From Escherichia coli (GTDB taxonomy: Bacteria; Pseudomonadota; Gammaproteobacteria; Enterobacterales; Enterobacteriaceae): a stretch of DNA of 64,000 nucleotides. Position numbers and translations under genes: made by a program. Of this stretch, positions 49,470 through 49,500 are shown one piece after another. The notes beneath the pieces were generated by a model. That model saw only the letters and a list, made by a program, of their open reading frames with translations, ran no database searches and was not told where the DNA came from. The DNA lies in NCBI RefSeq assembly GCF_003334765.1, contig NZ_QOWT01000021.1; one strand, 5' to 3'. Position 1 is the stretch's first letter. Every line of letters starts with the position of its first letter.

Positions 49470-49500
49470 AGGTTAAACCTTCCAGCAAGGGGAAGGTCAA
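49470..49500 (-). promoter_or_regulatory. copA promoter with CueR (MerR-type) operator in a 19-bp spacer
   Basis: Minus-strand TTGACC (-35) - TTCCCCTTGCTGGAAGGTT (19 nt, contains dyad CCTTCC..GGAAGG) - TAACCT (-10); the over-long 19-bp spacer with internal dyad is the MerR-family signature. Confidence 0.85.

Follow-up and report, generated by a model that had tools for sequence, protein, structure and literature searches.

The copA promoter of Escherichia coli, its CueR operator and the separately placed cueR gene

Positions 49470..49500 of the window, by which we mean the whole 64,000-nucleotide stretch of DNA that was analysed, hold the chromosomal copA promoter (PcopA) of Escherichia coli, and the gene of its regulator CueR, which acts through a dyad lying across an over-long promoter spacer, is present in the same window. 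We put the probability of this reading at about 97%. The PcopA/CueR locus is already known and is not a discovery; it is the textbook model of MerR-type activation by DNA distortion, and both crystal and cryo-EM structures have been solved on its DNA. What we show ourselves is how the promoter is built, which genes these are and how well the sequence is conserved inside E. coli and across species, and binding, DNA distortion and copper induction at PcopA are known from the literature and are taken from it. Around a core switch that is almost constant we describe changes in the regulatory wiring, namely an insertion that separates cueR from copA, a CpxR-type box specific to E. coli and, overlapping the operator, a phage attachment core.

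The window was assigned to the E. coli chromosome because a 361-nt query spanning the promoter was matched in 5,423 of 5,426 complete E. coli genomes, several of them at 100%, and because of the RefSeq annotation of the neighbourhood, in which the gene order is ybaQ, copA, glsA, ybaT, a pseudogene remnant, cueR, ybbJ, qmcA and fetA. The copA gene occupies 46926..49430 on the minus strand and encodes a Cu(I)-exporting P1B-type ATPase of 834 residues, which scores 1745.7 bits with the NCBIfam model NF007952 (cutoff 1316) and is also named copA in RefSeq. The protein carries two N-terminal CxxC motifs (residues 14 and 110), a CPC motif at residue 479 and DKTGT at 523.

Two further features of copA and its surroundings were noted. 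At codons 67–69 of the gene there is a heptamer, C-CCA-AAG (49224..49230, minus strand), at which a -1 shift reads CCC AAA GGC TAA and would give a 70-residue product corresponding to the first metal-binding domain. We take this to be the published programmed frameshift site of CopA(Z), reportedly described by Meydan and co-workers in 2017. The interval from ybaQ to the 3' end of copA contains three tandem REP-type elements (46636..46916), which match the Rfam family naRNA4 (RF02564) on the plus strand with 89, 80 and 42 bits.

The other side of the promoter is occupied by plus-strand genes. The first two, on which RefSeq agrees, are glsA (ybaS; 49692..50624), which encodes a glutaminase (NCBIfam NF009020, 560.5 bits), and ybaT (50627..51919), which encodes a permease matched by APC-family transporter models. 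They are followed by a 98-nt gene remnant (51950..52047, plus strand), mapped from an identical annotated region and classed in RefSeq as a frameshifted pseudogene, the stop codon of which shares bases with the start of cueR (ATGA). In E. coli SCPM-O-B-8794, the GTDB representative, ybaT is followed by open reading frames that by eye appear TolC-like and adhesin-like, an arrangement that suggests, without proof, that an island has been deleted in the lineage of the window. The cueR gene itself (52044..52451, plus strand) encodes a Cu(I)-sensing MerR-family regulator of 135 residues (NF007590, 308.6 bits, cutoff 244). A preliminary description of this DNA had placed cueR at these positions past glsA-ybaT, and both the position and the gene order are borne out; its figure of 2.6 kb for the separation is a fair rounding, the gene lying 2,544 bp from the edge of the -35 hexamer and 2,557 bp from the centre of the dyad.

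The promoter is read on the minus strand. The -35 hexamer TTGACC (49500..49495) and the -10 hexamer TAACCT (49475..49470) are separated by the 19-nt spacer TTCCCCTTGCTGGAAGGTT (49494..49476), so that the interval of 49470..49500 and the 19-bp spacing given earlier prove to be exact. From the -10 hexamer to the copA ATG there are 39 nt (49431..49469, minus strand), which comprise the leader and a ribosome-binding site, AAGGAG. The CueR operator is a perfect dyad, ACCTTCC-N7-GGAAGGT, with 7-nt arms at 49477..49497; its core, CCTTCC-N7-GGAAGG (49478..49496), is present without a mismatch, and the dyad occurs only once in the 64-kb window. It had been described as contained in the spacer. The dyad is certainly there, but it is not wholly inside, since its left arm shares 3 nt with the -35 hexamer and the first two or three bases (CC of the core, ACC of the longer form) are the end of that hexamer. 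The core stands 2 bp from the -10 hexamer (GGAAGG-TT-TAACCT), as in the published wild-type promoter. The proposal of a MerR-type, distortion-activated architecture is upheld, as the spacer, the core dyad and the distance from box to -10 all equal those of published PcopA (PMC8169799). A scan of 49300..49800 for sigma-70 promoters with spacers of 16–18 nt found none, and it was expected to be empty around PcopA because the spacer there is 19 nt; on the promoter of glsA it is uninformative. When 46500..53000 was searched against Rfam at E <= 1, the copA–glsA and ybaT–cueR spacers were without a match, the naRNA4 copies downstream of copA being all that was detected.

Published work reports that CueR binds PcopA, that induction needs both the dyad and cueR, and that a 17-bp spacer converts PcopA into a CueR-independent promoter. 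In the mechanism that we adopt, a CueR dimer binds ACCTTCC-N7-GGAAGGT across the 19-bp spacer. As long as Cu(I) is absent, the distance between the two hexamers is too great and their phase is wrong for sigma-70 RNA polymerase, and the promoter is near-silent. With Cu(I), Ag(I) or Au(I) held at Cys112 and Cys120, CueR kinks and under-winds the spacer, and this distortion brings the two hexamers into register. CueR also contacts the non-conserved region of sigma-70, copA is transcribed and CopA exports Cu(I) from the cytoplasm.

Much of the experimental basis for such a scheme is available for this promoter. PcopA has been described with a 19-bp spacer, the core CCTTCC-N7-GGAAGG and a box 2 bp from the -10 hexamer; in cryo-EM structures of CueR with sigma-70 RNA polymerase on PcopA the spacer is bent and under-twisted, such that it is read like a 17-bp promoter, and there is an auxiliary contact from CueR to the non-conserved region of sigma (PMC8169799). 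Gel shifts and in vitro transcription were performed on the same promoter, and moving the box by 1 bp towards the -10 hexamer led to an almost complete loss of activation (PMC8169799). The CueR signal of the gamma-proteobacteria has been given as ACCTTCCC-(5)-TGGAAGGT with a 19-bp spacer (PMC1526738). A copA-lacZ fusion responds to copper with CueR and gives no induction with the inactive C112S variant, and the loss of copper induction on deletion of cueR is the published basis of the copA-lacZ assay (PMC5329002). Mobility-shift, footprinting and mutated-box reporter experiments have, in substance, already been published for PcopA.

The position of cueR was considered against related loci. These were found by searching for the CopA N-terminal peptide DGL[ST]CGHCV with a degenerate pattern, one genome being used per species, so that the loci were picked through the copA coding sequence and independently of the operator; there are 120 of them, mostly from Enterobacterales. 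By tblastn, cueR is directly upstream of copA and divergent from it in 67 loci. Its start codon lies 8–11 nt upstream of the copA -35 hexamer, on the opposite strand, in 60 related loci (the starts detected, 63 in number, being ATG in 37 cases, GTG in 25 and TTG in one). Because the start codon is so close to the -35 hexamer, the cueR mRNA in this ancestral layout would have to start inside PcopA or on its far side and thereby run across the operator. Only three of the 120 loci, all from Escherichia, have glsA and ybaT upstream of copA. The homology of E. coli to other genera ends just upstream of the -35 hexamer and is picked up again no more than about 5 nt from the cueR ATG; because of this break, and because glsA and ybaT occur here in Escherichia only, we regard 49501..52043, which comprises glsA-ybaT and the remnant, as an Escherichia-specific block set into a short gap.

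On the evidence of these sequence comparisons, the 2.5-kb separation of copA and cueR is derived and not ancestral. The E. coli cueR gene differs from that of other genera in its ribosome-binding region and has no CueR box of its own, and no second box was found near it when up to three mismatches were allowed. With glsA-ybaT between them, the gene appears to have been decoupled from its own operator. A simple scan of the 124-nt spacer between ybaT and cueR found no standard promoter and no plus-strand terminator. In E. coli, cueR may be transcribed by read-through from glsA-ybaT, which acid and copper induce, or from a weak new promoter. The moderately conserved block just downstream of the copA -10 hexamer was considered as a relic of the divergent cueR promoter; its conservation is similar whether cueR is adjacent or displaced, a similarity that speaks neither way, and the idea was dropped. 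The preliminary description held that the regulatory logic can be read straight from the sequence; this is true of every element that it named, but the transcription of the E. coli cueR gene itself is not legible in this way.

Taken more broadly, the E. coli layout might be a rewired mer-like divergon, in which autoregulation of cueR has been lost, read-through from glsA-ybaT has perhaps replaced it and a phage core sits on the operator. We offer this tentatively, and consider it somewhat improbable as a whole. If the read-through into cueR is true, it would supply a mechanistic basis for the reported cross-protection between acid and copper. That cueR belongs to an operon in E. coli and to a divergon in Salmonella has been stated earlier (PMC1526738), and it has also been noted that ybaST lies between these two genes, copA and cueR (PMC9628877). 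The derived separation of cueR therefore refines known facts and adds no new one.

A different arrangement would have the operator work in both directions, with CueR controlling glsA-ybaT as well and, by read-through, cueR, to form one copper circuit. The glsA-ybaT genes are divergent from copA and copper-induced (PMC9628877; PMC10903455), and an early comparative study made cueR the last gene of a ybaS-ybaT-ybbI operon (PMC1526738). The absence of a plus-strand terminator or standard promoter from the scan between ybaT and cueR is in keeping with such a circuit, as is the requirement that the ancestral cueR mRNA cross the operator. This proposal meets difficulties at the operator itself: the glsA start codon is about 190 nt away, the scan of 49300..49800 gave no plus-strand promoter near the box and there is no second CueR box elsewhere in the window. 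Moreover, according to a review that cites Djoko et al. 2017, the regulation of ybaST is not directly associated with CueR (PMC10903455). We disfavour a bidirectional operator and judge it unlikely.

The assignment of the dyad to CueR, and not to another MerR-family metal sensor such as ZntR or a GolS-like paralogue, rests on the operator and on the protein. The architecture with a long spacer is common to the MerR-family metal sensors, and Salmonella has a paralogue of CueR with a CueR-type site (PMC1526738). The CueR of the window also gives sub-threshold matches to the ZntR, CadR and MerR models, but all of these are far under their cutoffs and the regulator passes the CueR equivalog cutoffs only, with TIGR02044 scoring 207.5 bits (cutoff 147.4). 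Residues 1–135 align in full to PDB entry 1Q05_A with 297.8 bits, and full-length alignments of about 298 bits were likewise obtained with chains of 1Q06/1Q07/4WLW, 4WLS, 6LDI/7C17 and 6XH7/6XH8. The Cu(I)-binding loop has Cys112 and Cys120, residue 77 is a serine, and the other cysteines are at positions 129 and 130. As the dyad is exactly the published CueR signal (PMC8169799; PMC1526738) and the structures on PcopA were solved with CueR (PMC8169799), we consider the action of a different sensor here to be very improbable. A different MerR paralogue at the dyad is excluded by the family scores of the protein and by an operator that equals the CueR signal exactly.

The promoter is strongly conserved within E. 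coli. Of the 5,426 complete genomes, 5,405 carry the 39 nt at 49466..49504, which contain the promoter, with an identity of 99% or more, and the neighbouring 39-mer (49505..49543) was recovered in only 3,217 of the 5,426, a shortfall due in part to a G/A polymorphism that is common at 49520. In total the 39-nt promoter gave 5,417 matches in E. coli genomes. Two of these are on plasmids, and could be transferred chromosomal segments or misassigned replicons.

Between species the conservation is confined to the promoter. From Escherichia to Pantoea and Erwinia the alignment contains one conserved island, CTTGACCTTCCCCTTGnTGGAAGGTTTAnnCT, with diverged surroundings. The dyad was scored as the best match to its 14 positions within 200 nt upstream of the copA start; five loci that were too short or had no in-frame ATG were left out of this count. 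No mismatch was found in 94 of the 116 usable upstream regions, one in nine and two in six, with actinobacterial loci among those having at least four. In an alignment of 88 unique sequences anchored on the box, the -35 hexamer carries 1.9 bits per position, the dyad arms 1.8–2.0, the seven central bases 1.5, the -10 hexamer 1.7 and each flank about 0.4; the choice of the box as anchor raises the values for the arms artificially and leaves those for the -35 hexamer, the -10 hexamer and the centre unaffected. The sequence TTGAC is found at an identical offset in 87 of these 88 promoters and TAnnCT, at the -10 position, in all 88. Because the offsets of the hexamers are constant to this extent, the 19-nt spacing is itself conserved.

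The notion that the dyad is a chance palindrome and that copA is under an ordinary unregulated promoter draws on the weakness of a single match taken alone (with one mismatch allowed in the 12-nt core, 0.10 copies are expected and nine of 100 shuffles of the window gave any), and is scarcely credible when the match is exact over 14 nt, is placed precisely between the two promoter hexamers of a gene for a copper pump, is intact in 94 of 116 orthologous upstream regions with flanks at 0.4 bits, has no promoter of standard spacing nearby and is on DNA for which structures and mutants are published (PMC8169799). The conservation and the published CueR–RNA polymerase–PcopA structures (PMC8169799) exclude it.

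A CpxR-type direct repeat, GTAAA-AGTCC-GTAAA, is found at 49521..49535 on the plus strand, 21–35 nt upstream of the -35 hexamer. It is a perfect match to the consensus GTAAA-N5-GTAAA and single-copy in the window, where 0.06 copies are expected. The box is intact in five aligned E. coli sequences, the G/A polymorphism at 49520 falling just outside it; in E. albertii, E. whittamii and the other genera the box was not found even when one mismatch was allowed. Deletion of cpxA or cpxR has been reported to lower the copA transcript (PMC11005409). From the consensus match and this published effect of cpxR deletion we infer that the box adds an envelope-stress input to copA.

The operator is also overlapped by a phage attachment core. 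The 20-bp sequence CCAGCAAGGGGAAGGTCAAG (49482..49501), which takes in the -35 hexamer, the middle of the CueR dyad and one of its arms, is the attachment site of P2-like elements in a few other E. coli strains, and is unoccupied in the window. In E. coli 24A16CRGN010 (NZ_CM148325.1, 4031400-4066800) copA and glsA are separated by a P2-like prophage of 34.6 kb, with genes for an integrase, a portal protein, terminase, a GPO scaffold, a P2-family capsid and an Ogr/Delta protein, and the core is duplicated at both prophage junctions. The copA side retains the complete promoter, and the CpxR-type box now lies 34.6 kb further off, as does glsA. An identical junction is present in six of the 5,426 genomes and a related one in 12 more, about 18 in total; in the latter the element side is 86% identical and the adjoining integrase 82% identical. 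Judging from the arrangement at these junctions, integrated P2-like elements would keep the control of copA by CueR and take the CpxR-type box away from the promoter. A comparison of the integrase module with sequenced phages gave only 80% identity over 111 nt, to a Citrobacter phage, and no close relative; a tblastn search of the 120 species loci with both integrases gave no match, and a literature search for this attachment site returned nothing relevant.

The nearest known system is PcopA/CueR of E. coli K-12, the Cue regulon, which is said to have been worked out by Outten in 2000, Stoyanov in 2001, Changela in 2003 and Philips in 2015. The -35 hexamer, the spacer, the core and the 2-bp distance are the same, CopA is encoded downstream, CueR is full-length and the order copA-glsA-ybaT-cueR is shared; we found no difference, and this is the same locus. 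With the boxes of the Cpx envelope-stress regulon the locus has in common the consensus GTAAA-N5-GTAAA; here it marks a predicted CpxR site that is absent from the sister Escherichia species.

The copA-cueR divergon of Salmonella enterica has an orthologous promoter block and a CueR protein that is 92% identical. In the representative of S. enterica subsp. arizonae glsA-ybaT is missing from the interval, and cueR starts at a distance of about 105 bp from the copA ATG. The dyad of this representative has ACCTTAA as its left arm (two mismatches), and the right arm and both hexamers are unchanged, which makes its operator a natural asymmetric variant.

The mer operon of Tn501/Tn21, in which MerR serves the overlapping divergent promoters PmerT and PmerR, shares with PcopA a 19-bp spacer with a dyad inside, and its metal-bound MerR-family dimer activates by DNA distortion, as CueR does. 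The two systems differ in the metal, in the sequence of the operator and in the genes under control. The head-to-head layout of mer resembles that of the ancestral enterobacterial copA and cueR, whereas in E. coli the gene of the regulator has been moved 2.5 kb off by glsA-ybaT and is without an operator of its own.
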